DNA of 35,536 nt from an uncultured Gammaproteobacteria bacterium (GTDB lineage: Bacteria > Patescibacteriota > Patescibacteriia > Magasanikbacterales > UBA922). The notes beneath the pieces were generated by a model that saw only the letters and a program-made list of their open reading frames with translations, had not been told where the DNA came from and made no database searches. The DNA lies in the NCBI GenBank assembly GCA_964496615.1, contig CAZCAB010000001.1:1-35536 (forward strand), given 5' to 3'. Made by a program: the position numbers and the translations under genes. How positions within the stretch are numbered: the first letter of the stretch is position 1; every line of letters starts with the position of its first letter. Shown in pieces: positions 1-34,827 of the stretch.

Positions 1-1218
1 CTGCACATTTGAAAAAATGCGTAAATATGCAAGCACGTCCTTTATATGCGCGCGCTCAAAAAAACGAACGCCCCCGCGATAGTCATACGGGATATCTCGC
101 TTTGCCAGTTCCATTTCTAGTGCTTGCGAATGAAACGCCGCCCGAAAAAGAACAGACATGCCTGAAAGTGATACACCCTCTTCTCGTAGTTCAAGAATAC
201 GCTGAGCAACAAACTCAGCCTCCTCCACTGCATCAGCGAATGCCTGGACTTCTGGCTTTCCGAGTGAGCTCACAATACTCTTGAGCTCCTTCTCGTATTG
301 AGATAAATTGCGCGTAATAACATCGTTTGCGAGCGCTAGAATTTCAGGCGTGGATCGATAGTTCGTTTCAAGTCTGTGTACGCGCGCGCTTTCATATTTA
401 TCTTCAAAACCTAAGATATTTTGAATCTCTGCAGCGCGAAATGAGTAAATGCTTTGTGCATCGTCTCCCACAACCAAAACATTCTTATGGATACTCCCGA
501 ACTGATCAACAATCGCAGCCTGAATTTTATTCGTGTCTTGATACTCATCAACGAGCACGTAGCGAAACTGCGACGCAAATTTTTCCCGAACACGAGGAGA
601 TTTAAGCAAAAGCAGGTACAAATTTGTCAGTAAATCATCAAAATCCATTGCATTTGCATCAAGCTTTCGCTTCCGATACTCATCGGCAATTCGCGCGAGT
701 GTCTCTTCATGTTCAAGCCACGATGGATGCTGCACATCAAGAACATCAGCTATTGTACTCATTGCATTTCTTGCATAGCTGATAATCGAAGAAATGACCC
801 GAGGCGATGGGAATCTTTTTTGCGTGCGATCGATCCCTTCCCCTTTCACACAGAGTTTCAAAAGATCTCGCGAATCTTCTGAATCCAAAATAGTGAAGTT
901 ATTTTGATATCCGAGCAAACCTGCGTATTGCTTCAGTATCTTATACGCAACATGATGAAACGTGCCTGCCCATGGCAACTTAACAGTACCTTCTGTCAAC
1001 AATTCAACACGCGAAAGCATCTCTCTGGATGCTTTATTCGTAAACGTTACCAATAAAATACTCCCCGGATCGACTCCTTGCTCCAGCAAATATGCAACAC
1101 GATATGTGATCGCTCTTGTCTTTCCACTCCCCGCTCCAGCCAAAACTAAACACGGTCCATCTCCATTTTGCACCACGATACGCTGCTCTTGATTTAATTC
1201 CTTTTCAAAGTTAATCAT
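1..1218 (-). CDS. uvrD: UvrD/PcrA-family ATP-dependent DNA helicase, N-terminal 406 aa; the 3' end runs off the window, so it has no stop and is absent from the ORF track
   Basis: Own translation from ATG at 1218..1216: MINFEKELNQEQRIVVQNGDGPCLVLAGAGSGKTRAITYRVAYLLE... Helicase motifs I (GAGSGKT), II (VDEYQDTN), III (VVGDDAQSIYSFRAAE) and IV (ETNYRST) are present. The frame is open to position 1. Confidence 0.9.
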   Translation of the reverse strand, partial: MINFEKELNQEQRIVVQNGDGPCLVLAGAGSGKTRAITYRVAYLLEQGVDPGSILLVTFTNKASREMLSRVELLTEGTVKLPWAGTFHHVAYKILKQYAGLLGYQNNFTILDSEDSRDLLKLCVKGEGIDRTQKRFPSPRVISSIISYARNAMSTIADVLDVQHPSWLEHEETLARIADEYRKRKLDANAMDFDDLLTNLYLLLLKSPRVREKFASQFRYVLVDEYQDTNKIQAAIVDQFGSIHKNVLVVGDDAQSIYSFRAAEIQNILGFEDKYESARVHRLETNYRSTPEILALANDVITRNLSQYEKELKSIVSSLGKPEVQAFADAVEEAEFVAQRILELREEGVSLSGMSVLFRAAFHSQALEMELAKRDIPYDYRGGVRFFERAHIKDVLAYLRIFSNVQ

Positions 1219-1224
1219 GGATGA

Positions 1225-1959
1225 TCATTGTACCATGAGTACCACTCGCCTGCCATGCTGCACATCACCACCGTTCCAATCATGGATTGTATTCATTAAA
1301 TCATCATATGTATATTCGAAATCAGCACCATGTTTTGTCCCTGGATCATTTGTTATAAAATGCTCAGGTGTATACCCCTTAATAATTAAAGCATGATACA
1401 CTGGGCCGTCGCCGCTAAAATATGGATTTGGTAAATCTTTTCCATATGCTACAACAAGTACAGGATGCCCGTGTGCAACAGACCGTTTAATTTCCTCGAC
1501 AGTTGGATTCTCAACAATGTGAAATGTTTGCCCCTTTACGTGCTCGTTGGCAAATTCTCGAACTTGTGTCATGGGAATACTATACTCCCACTCTTTCTCG
1601 TCTTGCCAAGAAACCATTTTCAGTATTTCATCACGTGAAAAAAAGGGGCTCAAGCTATATGAAGAATAGTAGGCATCAAGCATAAGGACAGCGGCTTCCT
1701 CGCATGCATCTTGCCATGGCTGTTCCCAATTTCCTTCAGGCGCTTGCGACGTAAACGGTACAGCCAAATCTTTATGTTCAGGCATGTCATCTAAAACTAC
1801 TTTTTCTTTCGCGCGTTCTTCTCTTGCAAGAATTTCAGTGTCCACTCTCACGACAATTGTGACATCTGACAAGGATGTAATTTCTCTCACCACCCAAAAA
1901 ATGCCTAAGCCGAAAAAAATGGACAGGCAAAGACAGATTCTGTTAAATCTAGAAAACAT
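1225..1959 (-). CDS. Membrane-anchored C39-like (papain-fold) cysteine peptidase
   Basis: ORF 1225..2025. Start placed at ATG 1959 (MFSRFNRICLCLSIFFGLGIFW, a TM anchor), just downstream of a terminator. Putative Cys motif WQDACEEAAVLML, His in VYHALIIKGY, and NDPG. Confidence 0.6.
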   Translation of the reverse strand: MFSRFNRICLCLSIFFGLGIFWVVREITSLSDVTIVVRVDTEILAREERAKEKVVLDDMPEHKDLAVPFTSQAPEGNWEQPWQDACEEAAVLMLDAYYSSYSLSPFFSRDEILKMVSWQDEKEWEYSIPMTQVREFANEHVKGQTFHIVENPTVEEIKRSVAHGHPVLVVAYGKDLPNPYFSGDGPVYHALIIKGYTPEHFITNDPGTKHGADFEYTYDDLMNTIHDWNGGDVQHGRRVVLMVQ

Positions 1960-1961
1960 AC

Positions 1962-1995
1962 TAAAAAGAGCGAGGGTCCCGAATCCGGCACCCTC
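1962..1995 (-). terminator. Intrinsic terminator closing the minus-strand unit of GC island 1
   Basis: On the minus strand GAGGGT(g)CCG-gatt-CGG(g)ACCCTC is followed by GCTCTTTTTAG. It lies between the stop of the 171-aa ORF (2016) and ATG 1959. Confidence 0.5.
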
Positions 1996-2015
1996 ATTCC
2001 CCTTGGCGACCCCTC

Positions 2016-2513
2016 TTAGCCGCATGTGATTCCATGAAAATCGCGATAGCGCAGGTTCTCCACCAGATCTTGAAGGGTACCGTGCAAGCGAAGCACTTGC
2101 CGACCACCCGCCTTTCTGGTGCGGTTTAGCACAATCACGACAACGAACACCGAGCCGCGTTGACTCTTGACGCGAACATCAGTACGGCCTCCATTGACGC
2201 CGCGCCGTGCAAGCGCCTCCTCAATCGCATCCTCTACTCGGCGAGCAGAACTCACCTTTGGTAGGGATACGCGATCTGATGCTTCTGACTCCTTCCTCCA
2301 GGTGCCAGCAAGAATCTGCGCACGACTCGTTTCGCGAGCGGGATGTGCTGACTTGCGTGCGTCCAGCTCTTCCCTGCCCGCTTGGGTCAATTCTCCTTCC
2401 GGTGTCAGCCACCCCTTCTTCACAGCATGGGCGACTTCTTGGTTGTACGAAGAAAAGGCTCCAAAGGGAGTCCTCAGGGCCTCATCCCATACAGGTGTGC
2501 CGTTGTTACTCAA
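2016..2513 (-). CDS. Orphan hypothetical protein (165 aa from TTG 2513; the track ORF extends to 2531), GC-rich
   Basis: SD GAGGAGG (2523-2529) lies 9 nt before TTG 2513. G at codon position 1 is 67/165 by hand count, which is coding-like. No family recognised; KKGWLTPEGELTQAGREEL is vaguely wHTH-like. Confidence 0.5.
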   Translation of the reverse strand: MSNNGTPVWDEALRTPFGAFSSYNQEVAHAVKKGWLTPEGELTQAGREELDARKSAHPARETSRAQILAGTWRKESEASDRVSLPKVSSARRVEDAIEEALARRGVNGGRTDVRVKSQRGSVFVVVIVLNRTRKAGGRQVLRLHGTLQDLVENLRYRDFHGITCG

Positions 2514-2581
2514 TCTGCAGTTCCTCCTCAATTTCTGGCATATAGGACGGCGTACCTATAGCCGACGTATCCACTCTATTC

Positions 2582-2609
2582 AGAGTACCACACATTTTTT
2601 TATGGTCAA
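2582..2609 (-). promoter_or_regulatory. Putative sigma70 promoter for the 171-aa ORF
   Basis: TTGACC-N16-TGgTACTCT (extended -10) on the minus strand, about 60 nt upstream of the SD. Confidence 0.45.
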
Positions 2610-2639
2610 AACCCGATATTGATATATGCACAGAAACGG

Positions 2640-2668
2640 TTGACGACTTGAAAAACCCATGATATTAT
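2640..2668 (+). promoter_or_regulatory. Near-consensus sigma70 promoter of the GC-rich plus-strand unit
   Basis: TTGACG (2640-2645), 17-nt spacer, TATTAT (2663-2668). Confidence 0.6.
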
Positions 2669-2675
2669 CTAGCCT

Positions 2676-3150
2676 AATGTCGTCGGATTGGCCGGTGACA
2701 CCTGCAAAGGAGAGGGGGCTTGAGCGTCTTCGCTCGGCTCCTCGCCCTCCTATGTGCACTCATGGCGCGTCCAGCGCCAGCGCAGGAGGAGACTCCTACG
2801 ACGAGAGCACCGGGGCAGGTGAGGAGACCACGGCCCCGAGGTCGCAACCACGCATGTGCCACGTTCCCTCGCTGGATCTGGTACAGAAGGTTGCTCCTTC
2901 GGGTCTGTACCAACGGCTAGGAGCCCATGCTCTTGGCCGCATCAGACATCACAAGGAGATAAAACAAACCCTCGTGGAAGAGGATGGTTCGCGACGTAGT
3001 AAGCAGCGCATCAGACGCACAGACTTATTGGACAGTCGCCACACCACAGAACAACGCACAGGGATGGGGGGACAGGAGGACAACAGACCGCCTTCCACTC
3101 ATTGACCTGTTCAATCTGGACAGATCAATGAGGAGGCGGTTTTGTTTTTT
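2676..3150 (+). ncRNA. Candidate structured ncRNA of unknown class (about 470 nt, GC-rich); a leaderless 142-aa ORF (2677..3105) is the alternative reading
   Basis: Bounded by the promoter at 2640-2668 and the terminator at 3088-3150. Dense strong hairpins include GGUACAGA...CC(UUCG)GG...UCUGUACC (2880-2911), the 10-bp GGCUAGGAGC-CCAU-GCUCUUGGCC (2915-2938) and a GGAG-GAGA-CUCC GNRA loop. The open frames show no codon-position bias by hand count. No RNase P, tmRNA, SRP or tRNA motifs found. Confidence 0.4.
3088..3150 (+). terminator. Rho-independent terminator of the GC-rich plus-strand unit
   Basis: Long imperfect hairpin with CCGCCT/AGGCGG and CTCATTGA/TCAATGAG arms (3088-3139), followed by TTTTGTTTTTT (3140-3150). 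Confidence 0.7.
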
Positions 3151-3170
3151 CTTGATAAGAAGGATATAGT
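3142..3170 (+). promoter_or_regulatory. Putative rlmH promoter, with leaderless geometry
   Basis: TTGTTT-N17-TATAGT; ATG 3179 lies 8 nt after the -10 and there is no SD. Confidence 0.4.
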
Positions 3171-3178
3171 ACAAACAT

Positions 3179-3649
3179 ATGCTCAGTTTCACCATCATAT
3201 CAGTCGGCAAACTCAAAGAATCATATTGGAGGGAAGCACAAAAAGAATACGCAAAAAGGCTTTCATCTTTTTGTCATATGAACATTGTCGAACTCAAAGA
3301 GGAAAAAAATGATGGAAAAAGTAATCGAGAATCAGTTCAAAAGAAAGAAGCGCAAAAAATACTCAAAGTGATTCCAAAAAATGACTATGTGATCACGCTT
3401 GATCCAGAAGGTCAATCCTACACGTCCCAAAAACTCAGTTCATATATTGAACTACTCACGCACGAAGTGAGCTCAATTTCGTTCATTATTGGAGGCCCAC
3501 TTGGTTTACATAAAAAAATACTGAGTCAATCAAAAAAGAGCATATCGCTCTCTTCTTTTACTTTTACGCATCAAATGGCGCGCATTATCCTTCTTGAACA
3601 ACTGTACAGAGCCTTCATGATTTCAAACAACAGACCGTACCACCACTAA
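3179..3649 (+). CDS. rlmH: 23S rRNA (pseudouridine1915-N3)-methyltransferase RlmH (SPOUT)
   Basis: 156 aa. Contains FIIGGPLGL, FTFTHQMARIILLEQLYRAF and a C-terminal RPYHH, typical of the YbeA/RlmH family. Confidence 0.9.
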   Translation: MLSFTIISVGKLKESYWREAQKEYAKRLSSFCHMNIVELKEEKNDGKSNRESVQKKEAQKILKVIPKNDYVITLDPEGQSYTSQKLSSYIELLTHEVSSISFIIGGPLGLHKKILSQSKKSISLSSFTFTHQMARIILLEQLYRAFMISNNRPYHH

Positions 3650-4596
3650 GAATCTACGACGGCACTAAACGTATTTGTTCCCAAACATTGACCACCAAGG
3701 GCAACCTCAAAATTTTGAGGAATAGCGATCTTCCAGTATGAATCCTTTGTAGAAGCACTGCCGTCAGTCGTTTTTGCAAGATTAGTCTGCACCAGCTGAG
3801 TTGTGGTCGTAAAGTATGTCATATCTGCATAGGCTTGAGCAGCGGATAGTGAAAACTTTTGCTGCGCCGCCCCTATTGTGCCTGCAGAGCACGTCATGGC
3901 AGTGCCTGAAAAATAACTATCAATACTCACATTTCCTGTATTGGTTATTGTTACAGTCGTATCTGACGTAGATGTAGCGCCAATCGCAAGCTCTCCGTAG
4001 CTAAAAAAACCAGGAACACTGAGGGCAGCAAGAGAATTTATTTCTGAACTCATATTACTACTTGTACTCGTTGCGAAATCGTTATCGGAAACAGTCACCC
4101 ATGCGACCCATGTGTCTGATGGATATCCATCAGAGTCAGTTGAGTCTGCATAATATTGAAGCGTAAAATCACACTCATAACTAACTGTTCCTTCATTACC
4201 GATAACACACCCTGTAATTGTGCAATCCCCGCCAGAATAGGTGACGCGATAACAATTATTGTTATCTGCAGAACAATTTTGTGCATTAGAAACACTACTA
4301 CGGTAATATACACTCTTGAGCGAATTATTATTTAAATTCGAACATCCGTCTCCGTCAGAAATATCCCCCCTCACATAAACTGCTTTTGTCGAATTTTCAT
4401 TCAAATGGATGTTCCCTGCAACTGAGGGTCCATCTGGTGTTGAAGTCGTGACGATAACTGAATCAACAGTAGGAGAAAAAGCACTTTTTGCCGGCTCTAT
4501 GAAAGAGTGAGATCCCAAAATTATAAGACCAATTATGTACGCAGCTATAAACGTCGACCAAACAACCAATTCTTTCTTGTTTCCTTGTTTAATCAT
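3646..4596 (-). CDS. Hypothetical Ser/Thr-rich, Cys-containing cell-surface protein with an N-terminal TM anchor
   Basis: 316-aa ORF with hydrophobic N-terminus VVWSTFIAAYIIGLIILG. ATGA overlap with the upstream ORF (4593-4596). Ends in TAG, overlapping the rlmH stop convergently. Confidence 0.6.
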   Translation of the reverse strand: MIKQGNKKELVVWSTFIAAYIIGLIILGSHSFIEPAKSAFSPTVDSVIVTTSTPDGPSVAGNIHLNENSTKAVYVRGDISDGDGCSNLNNNSLKSVYYRSSVSNAQNCSADNNNCYRVTYSGGDCTITGCVIGNEGTVSYECDFTLQYYADSTDSDGYPSDTWVAWVTVSDNDFATSTSSNMSSEINSLAALSVPGFFSYGELAIGATSTSDTTVTITNTGNVSIDSYFSGTAMTCSAGTIGAAQQKFSLSAAQAYADMTYFTTTTQLVQTNLAKTTDGSASTKDSYWKIAIPQNFEVALGGQCLGTNTFSAVVDS

Positions 4597-5966
4597 ACTT
4601 GAGCGTCTTCATTTTCAGATAAAAAGTGATCTTCAGAGGGTCTCACGTCAATCGTTGGAATGTCTGGGAGTACTGTTTGCATGCTCGGCCCTTTCACTTC
4701 TACACCATTTTGGCTCCTTTTAGGTGTCTCACGTTTTCTTCGAACTAGAACAAACGCACCCAAAATGATGAGGAGTACAAATCCAAATACGCTAAAAAAG
4801 CGGAAGCGGACTACTGGATCTCCGAGAAAGGCAAAAGTTGCAGCAAAAAACTGATAGATCACTCCCCCAACCTGAAACCTCACAACGTGCGTATCTTTCA
4901 TATCAACCCCAAAGTTCATGGTCGCCAGTAGTGCGTATGCTCCTCGTGATGGAGGAGTATACAATGTCGTAAATGTTGTGCGCTGCCCTTCACTAAAAGG
5001 TATATCTTTGGTTAAACTGAATGTCTCAACTTTTGTTTTTCCTTTAAAGACTTCGAGTTTGGCAGATGGTACATAGTTACTGGTTCCAGTATTCTCAACC
5101 ACAACCTCAATTTTGACTTTCTCGCCTTTCTTTAATTGCGATGAACTCAAGAGTACGTCACGAATTTTCCCAGACTGAGACAATATTCCTTCTGGATATA
5201 CGCGTAGAAGGGCGCTTTTTGAAACCACGTTGTCTACATCATACTTCGCCAAAATCGCGAGCTCATATTCTCCTGCATCAAGAAGCAAATCTGAAGTAAG
5301 CACGAGCGACTTCTGTTTACGAGGACTTACCCCACGAACTTTAGAAGTATCAATGGTGGACGTTACGACTGATACCCCGGACTCGTCAAACACCTCAAGT
5401 AGAACCTCAGAAAAACGAAAATCAACAGTCCCTCTATTTGCAATCTCAAACTCGAGCTGAACCGGACTCCCCGCTTGCGCAGGTTGCACATTAGCAAAAC
5501 GTACGTCAGCATCATGAACTTCTTGTCCAGTTACTTCAAAGTGAATCCGTCCCACAGCACCACTCTGAGCGTCAACGCTTTGCCCGCTCCTAGTTCTTGC
5601 TTGAATTTTCGTTGCCGGCTCAGCAACTAAGAATACATCATATGTTCCATTCGGTGCCGTGCGGACATCAAGTGTAAACTCTACACCGACAGATCTCGCA
5701 CCTTCAGAAAATTCAAGTATACGTCTTGAGAGCTTCACGTACTCAGATCCAAATCCCTCCACGCGCACACTGTAAGCTCGCTTCTTATCTATTTCAGAAT
5801 TTGTAATTCTGAATTCATCCGAAAAAGTTGCTGTTTTGGTAAGTCTACCACTTTCAATGGTACTCGGACTGATACCTGTCGCAAAGGTAAAAGAGATAAA
5901 ACCAAATAAACCACCCAGGAGTAGACCGGGTAGAAGCAAAAAACGAATGTATTTTTCTACACGCAT
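4593..5966 (-). CDS. Hypothetical membrane-anchored protein with about three Ig-like (CARDB/NEW3-like) repeats and a C-terminal TM plus charged tail
   Basis: ORF 4593..5984. Start placed at ATG 5966 (MRVEKYIRFLLLPGLLLGG, signal-like), 6 nt after TGgTATACT (5973-5981). Repeated beta-rich modules of about 100 aa. TM segment FFSVFGFVLLIILGAFVLV. Confidence 0.6.
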   Translation of the reverse strand: MRVEKYIRFLLLPGLLLGGLFGFISFTFATGISPSTIESGRLTKTATFSDEFRITNSEIDKKRAYSVRVEGFGSEYVKLSRRILEFSEGARSVGVEFTLDVRTAPNGTYDVFLVAEPATKIQARTRSGQSVDAQSGAVGRIHFEVTGQEVHDADVRFANVQPAQAGSPVQLEFEIANRGTVDFRFSEVLLEVFDESGVSVVTSTIDTSKVRGVSPRKQKSLVLTSDLLLDAGEYELAILAKYDVDNVVSKSALLRVYPEGILSQSGKIRDVLLSSSQLKKGEKVKIEVVVENTGTSNYVPSAKLEVFKGKTKVETFSLTKDIPFSEGQRTTFTTLYTPPSRGAYALLATMNFGVDMKDTHVVRFQVGGVIYQFFAATFAFLGDPVVRFRFFSVFGFVLLIILGAFVLVRRKRETPKRSQNGVEVKGPSMQTVLPDIPTIDVRPSEDHFLSENEDAQV

Positions 5967-5992
5967 AGCTTTAGTATACCACAAAAATATCG

Positions 5993-26665: not shown

Positions 26666-28535
26666 TTAGCTCTCAACTTCTTCTTTCTCTTTTTCCTCTT
26701 TCTTTTGCTCACCTTTCATCACTTGATCAAAGAGTTCTTGCTCAACCGTCTCATGCTCCATGAGTGCATCAACAAGTCGTTGCATTTCAGTCATGTGCTC
26801 ATCGATAACCTTTGTTGCCCTTTCCTTTGCTTCTTCAAGAAGCTCATTGATCTCGGCATCGATAATTTCGGCTGTCTTTTCAGAATAATTCCTCTTATTG
26901 TGAATCTCTTCAGCAAGGAAAATCATTTGCTCATTTTCACCATACAAGCGTGGGCCAAGTTTGTCACTCATAGCATACCGAGTCACCATTGCTGTTGCTG
27001 TCTCAGTTGCTTTTTTCAAATCGCTCGACGGACCTGTGGTAAGAAATTCATTACCGTACTTCTTCTTTTCAATCACATACCCACCAAGCATCATGGCAAG
27101 ATCATCTTTAAACTTCGCGAGTGTTCTATACCGTACGTCTTCTTTTGGCATTGAAAGCGTATATCCACCAGCCATACCACGACCAATGATCGATACCTTT
27201 CTCACAGGGTCACAATGTTCAAGGAAATGCCCGACAATTGCATGTCCTGCTTCGTGCCAAGCGGTCATCTCCCGCTCCTTGTCGCTCATCACGCGCGAAC
27301 GCTTCTCAGGACCGAGGAGCACTTTATCAATACTCTCAAGAATCTCTTCTTCAGTTACCTGCTTTTTCTCTTTACGTACCGTAAGAATCGCTGCCTCGTT
27401 CAAAAGATTCTCTAGATCAGCGCCTGAAAATCCTGGAGTTCGCTCAGCAAGTTTTCGAAGTGACACTCCCTTACCCATCGGCTTGTTCTTCGCATGCACC
27501 TTCAAAATCTCTTCTCTGTCATTGATATCTGGCATATCAATGACCACACGTCTATCAAACCGTCCTGGTCGAAGCAGTGCCCGATCAAGGACGTCTGGTC
27601 TATTTGTTGCTGCCATGACGATCACACCAATGTTTGGATCAAACCCATCCATTTCAACCAAAATCTGGTTAAGGGTCTGCTCTCTTTCATCGTGTGAACC
27701 ACCAAGACCTGCTCCTCGCTTTCGACCAACCGCATCAATCTCATCGATAAAGACAATGGCAGGAGCTGCCTTTTTTTGCTTTGTTGAACAAATCTCGTAC
27801 CCTGCTCGCACCGACACCAACAAACATCTCAACAAATTCAGATCCTGAGATATGAAAGAATGGCACACCTGCTTCACCTGCAACTGCTTTTGCTAGAAGT
27901 GTCTTACCTGTCCCGGGGGATCCCATCAAAAGTACCCCACGAGGAATCTTGGCTCCCATGTCAGTGAATTTCTTTGGATCTTTAAGAAAATCAACTATTT
28001 CCTCAAGCTCGTCCTTCGCCTCTTTAGCTCCCGCAACATTGGTAAAGGTAATCTTATTCTTATCATCCGGCTTTGCTTGTTTTGCACCGCTCTGTCCAAA
28101 GCCCATTGCACGGTTATTCATACCCTGCACTTGTCTGGTCATGAGCCACATCAGACCAAGAATAAGGAACAGTGGGAATAGATACGGAGCAACGGCAGCT
28201 ATCCACACTTGTGGTCCTGTCTCGTCTTTTACCTGTACATCAATTGCCTGAAGTTTTTCAGCATCAACCTTGTAATCAGTCATGAGTTCGCTGAACGACT
28301 GCCCAAGCTCTTTTTTGAGCTGCTGCGTATTTGCCTCTTCATCAAGAAGAGTAACGGTTACGGTATCATTGATAACCTCAATACTCTTTACTTTTCCTTC
28401 GTTGATTTCCTGTACCAGTGTATTTACGCCGATATCATCCGGTTTTTCAGCATTAAAATCTGAAAAACTCATAACACCCGCAATGAGAAAGAGTGTCACA
28501 ATGATGAGTCCAATATTTTTTGCTAAGTTTTTCAT
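26666..28535 (-). CDS. ftsH: ATP-dependent zinc metalloprotease FtsH, split into two track ORFs by a 1-nt frameshift in an A7 run (27771-27777)
   Basis: N-terminal ORF: TM segments and Walker A GSPGTGKT...[11 protein letters not shown]-terminal ORF: [15 protein letters not shown] (Walker B), the SRH region and [10 protein letters not shown]. The total span is 1870 nt, which is 3n+1. Deleting one A gives [18 protein letters not shown]. Confidence 0.9.
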
Positions 28536-29903: not shown

Positions 29904-29932
29904 CAAAAAGGAAAGGTGTTGTCAACCCTTCC
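29904..29932 (-). terminator. Terminator of the 1574-aa gene, overlapping rpsA P1
   Basis: GGAAGGG-ttgacaaca-CCTTTCC followed by TTTTTGG on the minus strand. Confidence 0.5.
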
Positions 29933-29963
29933 CTACATAAAATCAAAATGTCCTGTAAAAAAA

Positions 29964-32900
29964 TCACGGTGAATACGCAAATGCCTCTGCTACAGAGCTA
30001 AATCCAGCGCTTTTTGCCAGATCGTGCAATCCATTAATATTTTTGATCATCAATGTTATCTTAAGCGGAGCCTTCAAACCATATTTTTTCAGAACTACCA
30101 TGACGTGTGACAGTGCGATCATGTCCTGCTGCGCAACAAGAGCCGCAAGCTCTTTGTCTATATTCGCACGCCTCTTTTTTGGAATATCAGTAAGATCATT
30201 TACCGCGATCACATAATCAACAAATGCATTGATCCTCTGCCCTACATCTTGCAGCGCAAATAACTGCGCGATCATCGCTCTATCGCGTGCATCAAGTTCG
30301 ATATAGTTATTCCTGTCGATTATAGCAACGCGTTTCTCGCCACCCTCTTGAGACACCATGAAATTACCAGGGTGCACATCAGCATGAACCAAACTTACCT
30401 CCCGCTTCTTTTTACCACTGCCGAGCTTCAAGGGATGCATAATTTGATAGCTATAATTCTTCGTTATCAATGAAACAATTTCTTTAAGATCATGATCCTC
30501 AAGCTCCTCTGGCCGCACGAGTGTCTGCCCATCAACAAACTCTTCAACTTTCACATATGTATTGTCACTACCATCTCCTTCTATCATTGTTGATTGAGGA
30601 ACATACATGGTATATTCATGGCCTGCAGCGGTAAATCCGTGATTTACCTCTTTGAAAGCAGGATCAGTCTCATGGAATCGATCATATTTGATATCCTCAA
30701 TAACCCAAGCCTCAATCTCGTCTATCGCAGCTCGAGCTGGCGCGTAGCGCTCCGACCGCGTCTCAACAAGTATTTCAAACGTGCGTTTGAGCATGCGCAC
30801 CACCTCAGTGACATACATCTCGGCATTGGGATTAAGAACTTTCACAACGCGCTTGGAACCATCTTTCATATCACACAGATATGTAGACATCAGAGAACCA
30901 CCTCCGATTCGACCGACCATACGCTCAATGTATTCAGGTGCATCCTGCCATTCACGTTTGAGTGTGTTTGATGCGGTAAGCTTTGATTGACCCTTTACAC
31001 TATCATACGCATCACGAAACATGTTCTGCAGCCTTTGAGGAACATCAACATACTGACCTATCACCTGCAAAAACCGAATACCCACTGCCCCAAGACTTTC
31101 AGCAAGTTTAACTACGAACTCCTCAGTAGCCATTTTCTTTTGATCAATAGTTTCTAGTGGGTCTAACTGATTTTCAAGTTTGCGGCGCTGATGCACATAC
31201 TTAAGATTGAAACTAAAACTAGAATCTTCCACGCCATCCTCCGTTACTAACACCCGAGGACCAGCTCCTGACATTTGTTGTTCCATATTCTTGTACTCCC
31301 TAACCATCTTATCAAGATTTTTCTCGTCCTCTTCCCGTCTTTTGCGCTCCTCCTCTATCTCATCATCAGAGATTCCATCAGTCCAAGAATAATTATATAA
31401 ATCAAAACCATAATAATCATTAAACACCTGTCGCCATGGGGTTGGCTCTGATGGCGGTCTCAAGATTCTACTATGTATAAGCGGAGCGAGACCAAAAAAC
31501 AACATGTCCTCATCTACCTCACTGATTGCGACCTTCAGCACTTCCTTCATAACATCTTGCAGACTGCGACGATCTGAAGTTCGGCCATCCGAAACAAACT
31601 CACCAAGCATGTACTTAAGCAGCCATTTCCGACGCGCCTCAGTACGAAGAAGGCCCTTTTCACCAATCAAAAGCTCTCGAACGATCGCAAAACGCATCAT
31701 ATCGTTAATACCGAAAAGCGACCGAGTCCGTTGATCAGCCACATACGCTGCATCAGGTGCGTTGTCATAATCGTCACCCGCGTATACGCCGCGAGAAAAA
31801 AAATAGCTTTTCAAACCAGCGTCATCCCCACTCGCATTCATACATAGCTTAAACATTTCTTTCATATCCATTTTCTTCCCGAATTGCTCCATAAGGGCGA
31901 GCGCTCCCATCTTCGTAGGTTCTACCATTGATTCAAATTGATCAAGAAGCACATCCTCCACTCTTGAAAGCTCTTCAAATGATTGTGCATCACGTTCAAT
32001 AAACAATTCTCGCTGTTCTTTATTAAGCGTTGCCTTTGCTGCTGGATTGAGAAAAAAAGCATGCAACCTGTCTTCAAATGTGCCGGCTGACGCTTGTCTA
32101 CTTAAAATACCAGCCTGAAGTCGTGATCTGAAGCCTTGATCTTCATGTATTACTGCAACATACATGAGCAGCTCTCGATCCTGAGGATCATCCAAATCAA
32201 AATCATATGCTTCAATTATCTCCCGAGCAAGTCGATGAGAGCGTAAATTATCTACATACCTAAACCAATAATCTGCCATTTGCCTAAGTTTTTGGCTGAC
32301 AAATTCCTTTGGTGGAGATTGCTCCTTTTTCTTATTGGATGGATCATTCTTATATTCCCACATTGCATACATGAAATTATCACAATACATTTCCCACATC
32401 GTCTTGACGGTTTCGCTATCCGAGTGTAGGGGACTGTTGCCCAAAAGTTTGTTTGGTCTAAAACTCACAACATCTAGACCTTTAAGCCGCTCATGTTCAC
32501 CAGTGATAATCTGCGCAGCCTCAAACAAGTAGTTAAGACGCTCATCCATACTCGGATTCTTTTCATCATGTTCGAATGGATCATAGGTAATCTCACCAAC
32601 AGTATATATAAGAGAAATATGGTGAGTATACATTCGATATAGTTCGGGACGAGATCTGAGCATGATAAGCAACTCCCTGTCTCTATCCACACTCGATTCT
32701 GGAAGAAAATCCACCCCATCTATGATCAGATCAAGTATCCAATTGTTTACCATGGCCTCATAACTGTGCTCTGTCAAACCTACGCCATCTGATTCTTCAG
32801 CCACATGCTCTTCCAGCCATATAAAAAACGCTTCAAGCTTTTGAATTGAATCAACCTCAAACATCTTTAAGACGTATGCGAGTTCATAATCTTCAGGCTC

Positions 32901-34688
32901 ATCATCAAGATTCATTGCAAGTCTTTCATCGATACGCTTATAGGATCTTTTTTCCGCTTCCCTTCTCTCCTCAAAATTTTCAAGATCTTTAATTTCCTCT
33001 CTTAGAATTTTTTTCTCCTCTCTTTCAATTTCTTCCTTTTTTTCCCTCCATGCATCTTTTTTTATCTTAAGCTCGGATAATTGTTCATAAAAGACAGACC
33101 ATTTTTTCGCAAATTGATCATCGCGAGCTATGATATCCGTCAACCCCTCTTTCTCTTCATCATCGAGCTCAATATACGGAAGCTCGGCAATTGTATCCAT
33201 TGCTTGTCTGACACCGAATTTTATCCCTTCGTCTGCAAGTCGCTCGATGAGATCCATGAGCGGTTTGCGCGATTCTTCCAAATCAAGATTGAGGATAGCT
33301 TCGTTCATTATCGCGCCGGTTAAATCCTCTAACTTGATCGGTAAAAAACCACGTCGCCTTGATAGCTCACCAAAATGTGTTGAGATAAATTTTACGAAAT
33401 CAATATATTCCCTAGCATCAAAACCTTCATCTCCTTCAAAAAGTTTGTTTTCATTGGCTGCAGCTAGTATCACTTGAACATACTCACCCGAATCAGTAAA
33501 AGCAGGAATAACAATCCCCAGCTTTTCAAAGACCTCAGGCGTGAGAAGTGCTACCCCACTCTTAAGTGTATCGATACTGTCGATGTCGACAAGAGTTTCG
33601 GTGTATTTCTCAAGCACCGTACCAGCAGCATCGTTTGTGCGTACCCCGACACACACTTCCAGTATGCTATGAGTTAAAAACGCGTGATCCTCAGGGCTCA
33701 GCGTAGGCAATGCCTCAACCACTTTACCCGATATTACTAAGCCAAGATTCTTGTAAAAATAGTCGTACTGTTCATCTTCATATGAATACACACTTTCTTC
33801 AGTTCTGTCAGCCAAATCCTTATGCACTTTACGAGCAGCCAACACTATTTCTGAAAGCTGCGCACGCTTCACGAGATCTCGCACATCTTTCTTTTGAGAT
33901 ACAGAGGGAATCTTGTCATACAACCATTTTTCGGTTGATCCTCCAGCAAACTCGCTTACCTTTTGTGGAAATGACTCTTGCTCATGCACGTTACTACGAT
34001 AATCAACAAGCTTGCCGACACTCCCAATGTTCACCATGCGAGCTAAATTTGATCCATGCGCTACATCATGGCTCGATAGTCCTTTTTTCTCAGCATAATC
34101 GTCAAGTTTAACAAAGACGTTTCGTGCAGCGACAGGATTAACTCCATTGTCAGTCGCGTGCAAAAGACCACGGATATCTGCCTCATATTCGCTAAACCGC
34201 TGCATACCCATGAGCCTCACCCTACCCCATGCTCTGTCCGCCAAACTCTGATATTTAACACATGCTTCCCGTATCGCGCCATCTATCTCTTGGACATGAC
34301 CTTGCTTGTAGTGTATCGCCTCGTGCGCGAGCACAAAATCAAGTTCATCTTGTGTTTCAAGGAGCTGTAAAAGTCCTTTTGTGACAACAATGGCACCATT
34401 TGCCATGCTCAGAGCATTCGGCTCATCTTCGTTAGAGGCAACCTTGGCACGAAGCGGTAAATCTGGGAAAAATGCATCAAGGCGAGATTGTATATATACG
34501 GTTATTGGATGCTCTTCTGGTAAAAAACCATATTCAACATCAAGTATTTGCTCAAGAACATCTGATTGGAAGATAATAGATTCGTCGAAACGCTCCTTAT
34601 GCATTTCAAATCGCTCCTTTTCCTCTGTCGAAGTAGTATCTTTTTTAGCAGCCATCGTAGCTGCAATACCAGGCCGTCTTTCTCCCAT
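29964..34688 (-). CDS. Giant 1574-aa protein with an N-terminal M48-like zinc metallopeptidase, a long helical/coiled-coil middle and a C-terminal ABC1/UbiB-like atypical kinase domain
   Basis: HEAIH at 34311-34325, with the downstream SEYEAD third-ligand motif. Glu/Lys-rich coiled-coil EKKILREEIKDLENFEERREAEKR. Kinase-like VVKVLNP, HADVHPGN (30363-30386) and AIIDRNNY. Confidence 0.8.
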   Translation of the reverse strand: MGERRPGIAATMAAKKDTTSTEEKERFEMHKERFDESIIFQSDVLEQILDVEYGFLPEEHPITVYIQSRLDAFFPDLPLRAKVASNEDEPNALSMANGAIVVTKGLLQLLETQDELDFVLAHEAIHYKQGHVQEIDGAIREACVKYQSLADRAWGRVRLMGMQRFSEYEADIRGLLHATDNGVNPVAARNVFVKLDDYAEKKGLSSHDVAHGSNLARMVNIGSVGKLVDYRSNVHEQESFPQKVSEFAGGSTEKWLYDKIPSVSQKKDVRDLVKRAQLSEIVLAARKVHKDLADRTEESVYSYEDEQYDYFYKNLGLVISGKVVEALPTLSPEDHAFLTHSILEVCVGVRTNDAAGTVLEKYTETLVDIDSIDTLKSGVALLTPEVFEKLGIVIPAFTDSGEYVQVILAAANENKLFEGDEGFDAREYIDFVKFISTHFGELSRRRGFLPIKLEDLTGAIMNEAILNLDLEESRKPLMDLIERLADEGIKFGVRQAMDTIAELPYIELDDEEKEGLTDIIARDDQFAKKWSVFYEQLSELKIKKDAWREKKEEIEREEKKILREEIKDLENFEERREAEKRSYKRIDERLAMNLDDEPEDYELAYVLKMFEVDSIQKLEAFFIWLEEHVAEESDGVGLTEHSYEAMVNNWILDLIIDGVDFLPESSVDRDRELLIMLRSRPELYRMYTHHISLIYTVGEITYDPFEHDEKNPSMDERLNYLFEAAQIITGEHERLKGLDVVSFRPNKLLGNSPLHSDSETVKTMWEMYCDNFMYAMWEYKNDPSNKKKEQSPPKEFVSQKLRQMADYWFRYVDNLRSHRLAREIIEAYDFDLDDPQDRELLMYVAVIHEDQGFRSRLQAGILSRQASAGTFEDRLHAFFLNPAAKATLNKEQRELFIERDAQSFEELSRVEDVLLDQFESMVEPTKMGALALMEQFGKKMDMKEMFKLCMNASGDDAGLKSYFFSRGVYAGDDYDNAPDAAYVADQRTRSLFGINDMMRFAIVRELLIGEKGLLRTEARRKWLLKYMLGEFVSDGRTSDRRSLQDVMKEVLKVAISEVDEDMLFFGLAPLIHSRILRPPSEPTPWRQVFNDYYGFDLYNYSWTDGISDDEIEEERKRREEDEKNLDKMVREYKNMEQQMSGAGPRVLVTEDGVEDSSFSFNLKYVHQRRKLENQLDPLETIDQKKMATEEFVVKLAESLGAVGIRFLQVIGQYVDVPQRLQNMFRDAYDSVKGQSKLTASNTLKREWQDAPEYIERMVGRIGGGSLMSTYLCDMKDGSKRVVKVLNPNAEMYVTEVVRMLKRTFEILVETRSERYAPARAAIDEIEAWVIEDIKYDRFHETDPAFKEVNHGFTAAGHEYTMYVPQSTMIEGDGSDNTYVKVEEFVDGQTLVRPEELEDHDLKEIVSLITKNYSYQIMHPLKLGSGKKKREVSLVHADVHPGNFMVSQEGGEKRVAIIDRNNYIELDARDRAMIAQLFALQDVGQRINAFVDYVIAVNDLTDIPKKRRANIDKELAALVAQQDMIALSHVMVVLKKYGLKAPLKITLMIKNINGLHDLAKSAGFSSVAEAFAYSP

Positions 34689-34827
34689 ATATACTCTGTA
34701 TGTTACTATAATGTACCACGTATCATATCAGCTAAAAAAAGCAAAGTAAACAAAAAACGGGCACATCCATATCCCTTGTCAAATACCCCAAAATCAGGTA
34801 TACTAGATCCGCTAAAAGAACCAAATT

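Follow-up and report, generated by a model that had tools for sequence, protein, structure and literature searches.

The largest open reading frame (ORF) listed in a 35,536-nucleotide stretch of DNA, hereafter the window (positions 1 to 35,536 of contig CAZCAB010000001.1, GenBank assembly GCA_964496615.1), codes for a protein of 1,574 amino acids that is very probably a bifunctional member of a large family combining an M48 metallopeptidase with a kinase-fold domain of the UbiB/ABC1 type. The source genome carries the name of an uncultured Gammaproteobacteria bacterium and is assigned by GTDB to the Patescibacteriota (Magasanikbacterales, UBA922). The ORF (29964..34688, minus strand, as are all features of the window located below) opens with an ATG at 34688, runs through 1,574 codons to a stop and has full-length homologues at 22-41% identity; this is how the original prediction, made from the sequence alone, had delimited it when it proposed a fusion of the two domain types. 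Being the largest ORF and taking up ~0.5% of the 0.99-Mb genome (82% complete), it should matter to the biology of the organism. It also provides the sole M48 match and the sole ABC1 match found in that genome. The two domains are ~1,300 residues apart, bridged by a helical scaffold.

A word-indexed search returned two relatives only, giving the protein the appearance of a near-orphan, a view that did not survive when residues 1-1200 were compared exhaustively by phmmer with 1.84 billion cluster representatives. This search yielded 480 matches at E<=1e-3, of which 146 reached <=1e-10 and 31 reached <=1e-30. Among the best 150 of these 480, 115 are 1,350-1,800 amino acids long. In these full-length members, an HExxH motif lies near residue 100-200 in nearly all, an HxDxHxGN motif lies ~140 residues from the C-terminus in most, and the spacing between the two motifs is constant. 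The conservation figures given below refer to an alignment of the 115 full-length representatives (A1) or, where so stated, to the 30 closest relatives (A2).

The protease and kinase-fold domains

The N-terminal region is, as read from its residues, a BepA/LoiP-type M48 zinc endopeptidase predicted to hold all four zinc ligands, including the histidine of a putative active-site plug. The domain, with its plug-type motif, spans residues 74-220 (34029..34469). Pfam PF01435 (Peptidase_M48) covers residues 74-207 (E 1.8e-13, 51.1 bits against a cut-off of 20.3), and the family profile retrieves from the PDB the structures 3C37 (E 3.2e-17) and BepA (~5e-10) for the N-terminus. Structural models made use of small diverse alignments (A3 and A4) drawn from the window and other loci, and the protein was modelled as two halves, residues 1-800 and 780-1574. 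The M48 fold was predicted with a local distance difference test score (pLDDT) of 85-94 over residues 60-140, and the top Foldseek matches for the N-terminal half were BepA (6ait/6sar, E 1e-07, ~510 columns) and 3c37 (template modelling score, TM-score, 0.56-0.57 normalised to the target). The zinc-binding and catalytic motif HEAIH (residues 122-126, 34311..34325) contributes H122 and H126, found in all 115 members, and E123, found in 113. It is followed by EYEAD (residues 167-171, 34176..34190), which aligns to the E-x-x-A-D of 3C37 and BepA and in which E167, the third zinc ligand, is likewise invariant (115/115) and D171 is kept in 113; R164 is kept in 114. Thus, the zincin module that had been recognised from its HExxH...ExEAD pattern occupies the expected sites, with Pfam, PDB profile and fold in agreement.

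Beyond these residues, 84 positions past HExxH, the protein bears a plug-type motif, H211-G212-S-N-L-A-R217 (H-G-x4-R, 34038..34058), with H211 in 113, G212 in 115 and R217 in 112 of the 115 members. The signature of the active-site plug in M48 enzymes is H-P-x(4)-R, placed 30-140 residues beyond HExxH; BepA uses the histidine of this motif, H246, as a fourth zinc ligand that keeps it auto-inhibited, M48 enzymes in general conserve the motif, and the plug histidine blocks the catalytic water and must shift for the enzyme to act (10.1101/2020.07.30.230011). In the family described here, the proline of the signature is replaced by an invariant glycine. The window protein shares with the soluble M48 peptidases BepA (YfgC) of Escherichia coli and 3C37 of Geobacter sulfurreducens, as well as LoiP and YcaL, the HExxH, the glutamate third ligand within E-x-x-A-D and a plug-like H-x-x4-R motif, and with BepA also a helical-repeat domain after the protease. 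By contrast, BepA is a periplasmic protein of 487 amino acids that has a signal peptide, acts at the BAM complex and carries proline after the plug histidine, whereas the window protein has 1,574 amino acids, no signal peptide, glycine at that position and an added kinase-fold domain.

At the other end of the chain, residues 1168-1574 (29967..31187) form a UbiB/ABC1-fold kinase-like domain that includes an N-terminal KxGQ-type extension, an assignment on which PF03109, hhalign and Foldseek concur. Pfam PF03109 (ABC1) matches residues 1261-1477 (E 8.6e-10, 38.6 bits against a cut-off of 22.9). When the family C-terminus was compared, profile to profile (hhalign), with eight canonical UbiB/ABC1 proteins from other loci (A5), they aligned with a probability of 99.75% (E 2.6e-27) over 352 columns, the KxGQ extension covered. 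Searching the PDB with the single sequence found nothing, and matches came by profile only, with Rv3197 at E 3e-07. Foldseek on the C-terminal half, modelled with a mean pLDDT of 78.7 and a predicted template modelling score (pTM) of 0.75, retrieved COQ8A/ADCK3 first (5i35, 4ped, 7udq; ~406-415 columns, TM-score 0.62-0.66 normalised to the target), then MSMEG_1954 and then Rv3197, all of them UbiB-family structures.

Most residues expected of an ATP-binding site of this fold are in place. K1283, in VVKVLNP (30840..30842), aligns to the lysine of the canonical VAVK and is the predicted ATP-binding beta3 lysine; it is kept in 83 of the 115 members, and the other 30 with a residue at this position have arginine (15) or glycine/alanine (15), most of the latter with a basic residue two positions on. 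The canonical alpha-C glutamate aligns in hhalign to D1332. The catalytic loop HADVHPGN (residues 1435-1442, 30363..30386) aligns to the canonical HADLHPGN, with D1437 in 104 members (asparagine in 10), G1441 in 114 and N1442 in 112, and the metal-binding aspartate, counterpart of that of DFG, is found in D1458-R-N (30309..30317, within AIIDRNNY, residues 1455-1462), with D1458 in 113 and R1459 in 110. VVKVLNP, HADVHPGN and AIIDRNNY are the signatures on which the ABC1/UbiB assignment had originally been based, and they lie where they had been seen. Two hallmarks differ. The counterpart of KxGQ is R1205-F-L-Q1208 (31065..31076; hhalign column), with R in 111 and Q in 113 members and leucine in place of glycine. 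Likewise, a glycine-rich loop, G1262-G-G-S1265 (30894..30905; G/G/G/S in 113/110/113/110), stands in hhalign opposite A[SA]AS, the Ala-rich loop that reads A[AS][AG]S in the canonical loci.

The C-terminus can thus be described, on the evidence of its residues, as a predicted ATP-binding domain of UbiB/COQ8 fold with lysine, catalytic aspartate and asparagine, and metal-binding aspartate intact, belonging to a divergent clade of the ABC1/UbiB superfamily and not to UbiB itself. It aligns with TIGR01982 over residues 1168-1551 at only 42.6 bits against a cut-off of 487.55, and with PRK04750 at 20.3 against 667; scores so far under the UbiB equivalog cut-offs indicate a superfamily member rather than a UbiB orthologue. 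The kinase-like fold, N-terminal extension, HxDxHPGN, beta3 lysine and metal aspartate are common to UbiB/COQ8A/ABC1K proteins (4PED, 5I35, 5YJZ for Rv3197, 7CY2 for MSMEG_1954) and the window protein. By contrast, UbiB/COQ8A have AAAS, KxGQ and DFG and UbiB proper has C-terminal transmembrane segments, whereas the window protein has GGGS, RxxQ, DRN, a fused protease and no transmembrane segment. The original prediction pointed out that this superfamily is usually linked with quinone or lipid homeostasis, generally missing from reduced-genome symbionts. Its superfamily assignment holds but UbiB orthology does not, and given a kinase domain that is not orthologous and has other motifs in place of the UbiB hallmarks, it is no paradox that quinone metabolism should be missing. 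No Ubi gene was found among the neighbours scanned, the rest of the genome not having been searched for ubiquinone-pathway genes.

The region between the two domains, expected to consist of about 1000 residues of helical and coiled-coil sequence, is indeed predicted to be all-helical, with one long charged helix at ~526-583. Immediately after the protease, residues 230-520 (33129..34001) form a helical-repeat region positioned like the TPR domain of BepA (pLDDT mostly 60-87; the Foldseek alignment of ~510 columns covers both M48 and TPR of BepA). Residues 521-780 (32349..33128) make a highly charged helical/coiled-coil spacer, in which helix 526-583 was modelled at pLDDT <50; residues 501-600 contain 34 D/E and 22 K/R, and the spacer is little conserved in the alignments of 115 or 30 sequences. 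The N-terminal half as a whole was modelled at pLDDT 60. Residues 820-1090 (31419..32231) then constitute a conserved, family-specific helical domain with the motifs LLxGxxGxL and LYFxLxPxLxxRILxPP...W (pLDDT 75-92), which is matched by nothing in Pfam or the PDB, stands out as the second conserved block among the phmmer matches, is also present in the archaeal P0003 and was modelled as a single body with the kinase domain (pTM 0.75). An acidic linker with low confidence (residues 1095-1160, 31209..31406; pLDDT <50 at model residues 316-381; 25 D/E in 1101-1200) precedes the kinase-fold domain.

The most hydrophobic 19-residue Kyte-Doolittle window of the protein reaches only 1.54 and includes charged residues, and the N-terminus is hydrophilic, which argues against any transmembrane segment or Sec signal, as had been anticipated. 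Neither was detected in ~100 of the 115 relatives. The protein is most likely soluble and cytoplasmic. Signal-peptide-like hydrophobic N-termini occur in ~6 of the 115 full-length relatives (P0062, P0076, P0079, P0097, P0113 and P0121), suggesting that part of the M48-UbiB-like family may be exported.

Conservation and distribution of the family

The conservation of catalytic residues among homologues, proposed as a check together with the original prediction, is borne out by counts that go from 115/115 for H122, H126 and E167 through 113 for D1458 and 112 for N1442 to 83 for K1283. All eight core catalytic residues occur together in 74 of the 115 members, the window protein included. Among the 30 closest relatives, none departs from K1283 and every catalytic residue is intact, and Pfam recognises M48 in all 30 and ABC1 in 28. 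These patterns of conservation argue that both active sites are under selection. Across the family, the protease with its plug and the nucleotide/metal site appear to be universally intact, and most lineages, though not every one, also retain the residues predicted to serve phosphotransfer.

The module also persists within much larger proteins. Ten giants of 2,216-4,541 amino acids were scanned (P0043, with 5,166, and P0087, with 6,307, were left out), and nine of them hold both domains in the same order and with similar spacing (P0074, P0094, P0084, P0088, P0047, P0082, P0092, P0142 and P0127). To these domains P0074 adds an SF1 helicase, P0094 a GHKL ATPase and HEAT repeats, and P0084 a CheR-type and a class-I methyltransferase together with an APH-like kinase. 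Judged by such domain orders, M48, scaffold and ABC1 seem to be inherited as one block, even within larger proteins. In a Candidatus Peregrinibacteria locus (L050, 3-4727), a frame of 1,575 codons carries KLGQ at 1195 and HADLHPGN at 1431, near the corresponding positions of the window protein, and possibly represents a branch of the family that retained the classical UbiB motif.

No description of an M48-UbiB fusion was found in the full-text literature searched, where M48 and ABC1/UbiB proteins are mentioned together only for plastoglobules and cyanoglobules, and the automatic NCBI label of family members is only "M48 family metalloprotease". The domain types are known; their fusion with altered signature motifs appears, from the sequences compared, to be a conserved combination undescribed in that literature. 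The original prediction knew of no described architecture of this kind. That view stands in the absence of a published description, but with 480 representatives, and 115 full-length proteins among the best 150, it is not rare.

A genome survey based on one pattern derived from the 30-sequence alignment detected full-length copies, among the matches listed, in Daviesbacteria, Peribacteria, 'Patescibacteria group', 'Deltaproteobacteria' and 'uncultured Gammaproteobacteria' metagenome-assembled genomes (MAGs). A Micrarchaeota contig bears a partial copy, which adjoins SBDS and exosome genes, neighbours that indicate a truly archaeal copy. Uncultured microbes account for nearly all known occurrences of the family. 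Five of the six carrier genomes looked up measure 0.9-1.6 Mb and one 4.6 Mb, and one member was found on marine (TARA) metagenome contigs beside GGDEF, purine-synthesis and Bat-operon genes. The 4.6-Mb carrier and the TARA contigs show that the family is not confined to reduced-genome symbionts, the setting that the original prediction had in mind. At a finer scale, the family is absent from all 40 nearest relatives of the window genome. A sample of 401 genomes from across the phylum includes 3 with a full-length copy, and around one small 'Gammaproteobacteria'-labelled genome the family is present in 6 of 41 genomes, at least two of which have two copies. Two diverged full-length paralogues exist in each of the small genomes G448 (C1:528222-532649 and 636473-641209) and G449 (on C3 and C13). 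The MAGs G436 and G438 (loci L013 and L008), labelled 'uncultured Gammaproteobacteria', measure 1.1-1.2 Mb, and all 40 nearest relatives of G436 measure 0.7-1.5 Mb; either they are mislabelled, perhaps, or their lineage has undergone strong reduction. The gene in the window has a GC content of 0.40-0.44, the same as its surroundings, hence there is no compositional sign of a recent horizontal arrival.

Possible functions of the fusion

M48 proteases are now seen as auto-inhibited, with few of the signals that activate them understood, and the biochemical role of UbiB/ABC1 proteins is debated, with protein kinase, ATPase and lipid extractor as candidates. A large conserved family that physically couples the two constitutes a natural experiment on both questions. 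In the family examined here, the kinase-fold domain never occurs without the plugged protease, so that the simplest model is one in which its nucleotide state gates the protease. We therefore propose, with a confidence that falls somewhat short of an even chance, an auto-inhibited cytoplasmic protease gated by a UbiB-fold nucleotide module. The plug would keep the M48 protease inactive, and the kinase-fold module would act as a nucleotide-dependent switch for plug release or for substrate engagement, operating through ATP binding, ATP hydrolysis or autophosphorylation. The signal would pass through the conserved helical body (residues 820-1090) and the long scaffold. The resulting role would be that of a regulated protease in protein quality control or signalling, and not one in quinone biosynthesis.

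What is known of COQ8A helps to specify how such a switch might work. Replacing alanine by glycine in its A-rich loop brings about protein kinase (autophosphorylation) activity, such replacements, by themselves or combined with changes at the KxGQ lysine, raise autophosphorylation and lower ATPase activity, and the KxGQ glutamine holds a candidate hydrolytic water (PMC8956952, 10.1101/149823). With its natural GGGS and Arg-x-x-Gln, the UbiB-fold domain of the family should bind ATP, and it probably autophosphorylates or hydrolyses it, the glycine-rich loop favouring the first activity and the conserved glutamine the second. It thus carries naturally the Gly-for-Ala loop change that switches COQ8A to autophosphorylation.

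Proteases with a nucleotide module in the same chain have precedents, at least by analogy, in FtsH, which joins an AAA+ domain with M41, and Lon, which joins one with S16. These have an AAA+ unfoldase fold instead of the kinase fold of the window protein, in which there is no sign of rings or processive unfolding. A more far-reaching reading would make the module a new class of nucleotide-gated protease, the kinase-fold counterpart of AAA+ proteases in ultra-small bacteria, DPANN archaea and some proteobacteria, with a Gly-looped UbiB-fold switch releasing the M48 plug; we hold this generalisation to be rather doubtful.

Several observations weigh against a gated protease. With the two halves modelled separately, no contact between the M48 and kinase domains could be modelled, and residues 520-780 were modelled at low confidence. 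The catalytic aspartate is asparagine in 10 of the 115 members and the beta3 lysine is replaced or shifted in 30, implying that phosphotransfer is not the universal function, though nucleotide binding could be. The flanks differ at every locus examined (~15), with no conserved neighbour to hint at a substrate, and the patchy occurrence of the family is unusual for a core quality-control enzyme.

Two other readings seem to us unlikely, in similar measure. The first is a role in lipid or prenyl-lipid homeostasis, in which an ATPase would act on hydrophobic molecules at the surface of membranes or lipid bodies and the protease would see to the turnover of proteins associated with them. On this view, the fusion would be a 'Rosetta stone' of an ancient ABC1-M48 partnership. 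Homology to UbiB over the whole domain length, KxGQ-type extension included, is consistent with it, as are a patatin-type lipase gene 42 nt upstream of the member in two loci (L062 and L063) and a CDP-alcohol phosphatidyltransferase gene near that of L065; such lipid-related neighbours are, however, not kept across loci. Moreover, an ABC1K and an M48 protease are co-resident and co-expressed in plant plastoglobules (10.1101/2021.02.05.430006, PMC8956952), and cyanoglobules of Synechocystis hold slr1919, sll0005 and sll1770 together with sll1280 (PMC12223511). In these cases, ABC1K and PGM48 or sll1280, members of the same two families sharing one compartment and expressed together, are separate proteins of lipid droplets in photosynthetic hosts and have canonical ABC1 motifs, whereas the window protein is a single soluble chain from non-photosynthetic, mostly ultra-small organisms; the link is one of analogy. 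The lack of a transmembrane segment or evident membrane anchor, the TIGR01982 score far under its cut-off and the family-wide replacement of the AAAS loop and the KxGQ lysine, both linked to ATPase/lipid function, all speak against a lipid role. So does the view that Patescibacteria generally lack quinone synthesis.

The second is that of an effector leaving the producer by a route other than Sec (such as type IV secretion, pili or contact-dependent transfer) and entering a host or prey cell, where it would cleave and/or phosphorylate host proteins. This would fit the episymbiotic lifestyle of many carriers, most of which, when resolved to genomes, have 0.9-1.6 Mb and one of which is a Micrarchaeota archaeon, but the family also has members in larger genomes of apparently free-living organisms. 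Its patchy distribution with two copies in some genomes, the VirB4, PrgI and TraC-like genes directly upstream of the member in L066, and the large Ig/fn3 surface proteins upstream at four loci would also be in agreement with transfer to other cells, as would the signal-peptide-like N-termini in ~6 of the 115 relatives; against these stand the lack of a signal peptide in the window protein and in the great majority of the family, and the housekeeping genes that flank it in the window (rpsA-like S1, FtsH and ThrRS). Cysteine makes up 0.32% of the protein as opposed to 0.69% in neighbouring proteins, which might be taken as a sign of export; since several cytoplasmic neighbours have no cysteine at all, we consider this uninformative.

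It is less likely still that we are dealing with a pseudo-enzyme, in which the kinase-fold domain would give the large protease scaffold structure or bind a ligand for it, without ATP turnover. The asparagine substitutions at the catalytic aspartate, the beta3 lysine that is not strictly kept and the stricter conservation of the protease site than of the kinase site would favour this idea. Nevertheless, every catalytic residue is intact in the window protein and its 30 closest relatives, and the glycine-rich loop, N1442, D1458 and Q1208 are kept in >=95% of the family, as expected of a nucleotide/metal site under selection. Equally improbable is a biological-conflict (anti-phage or anti-plasmid) system with a nucleotide-dependent sensor licensing a protease effector, for which the helicase, GHKL ATPase, and methyltransferases plus APH-like kinase fused to the module in P0074, P0094 and P0084 and the very patchy distribution could be invoked, but which finds no PADLOC match, no defence-island neighbours at the ~15 loci examined and a gene GC equal to that of its surroundings.

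If the module does work as a gated protease, the fusion would provide genetic evidence that UbiB-family and M48 proteins cooperate in plastoglobules, cyanoglobules and possibly mitochondria, and a soluble, tractable model for what UbiB 'kinases' do. Being free of transmembrane segments, the protein may be easier to purify. It is also among the largest proteins kept by genome-reduced Patescibacteria and DPANN organisms.

Gene neighbourhoods and expression signals

In the window, the gene is flanked by those for an S1-domain protein (rpsA-like), a split FtsH and ThrRS, and by that of a divergent metallo-beta-lactamase-fold protein. FtsH, assumed to be an essential protease gene, is split into two overlapping ORFs, 27741..28535 with FtsH_ext and the start of AAA, and 26666..27883 with the remainder of AAA and M41. 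Within the region 26666-28535 on the minus strand, the switch of frame falls on or close to seven consecutive A (aaagcAAAAAAAggc, ~27770-27776), which could reflect either a homopolymer assembly error or a genuine frameshift.

An all-against-all BLAST comparison of flanking ORFs from 11 loci detected no common neighbour, apart from large Ig/fn3 surface proteins that two pairs of loci have in common. Proteostasis genes lie near three loci, with FtsH in the window, YidC, Band_7, HrcA and GrpE in L002, and DnaJ in L062; a heat-shock/proteostasis neighbourhood was rejected as evidence, being absent at L064, L065 and L066. On the marine TARA contigs, a gene for a patatin-like phospholipase (L062 6676-7959, L063 3340-4623) ends 42 nt before the member and is itself preceded by a response-regulator gene, and the three may form an operon. 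In L065, a gene for an M17 aminopeptidase lies 3' of the member and the CDP-alcohol phosphatidyltransferase gene nearby. PADLOC-DB 2.0 gave 0 families at E<=0.1.

On the 928-kb contig of L066, PrgI, TraC-like and VirB4/DUF87-TraG genes lie directly upstream of the member (421-5988), and a PP2C phosphatase gene ~2 kb downstream. Large surface proteins with Ig-like, cadherin-like, fn3 or beta-helix domains are encoded upstream of the member in four loci from three lineages (L006 3-4085, L010 103-1485, L007 2-1255 and L013 2108-5920), in L013 by the immediately preceding gene, which runs into the first part of the member. Such genes are common in these genomes, and their adjacency may be coincidental.

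As to expression, the gene had been credited with its own promoter and terminator. A promoter-like site, TTTACT-17-TATGAT with an extended TG (34722..34750), does lie 5' of the ATG at 34688, and a terminator-like hairpin with a T tract (29908..29934) follows 30 nt 3' of the stop codon, both identified as consensus matches. Matches of this kind are, however, no commoner in the real sequence than after shuffling, and therefore lend weak support to a monocistronic unit.

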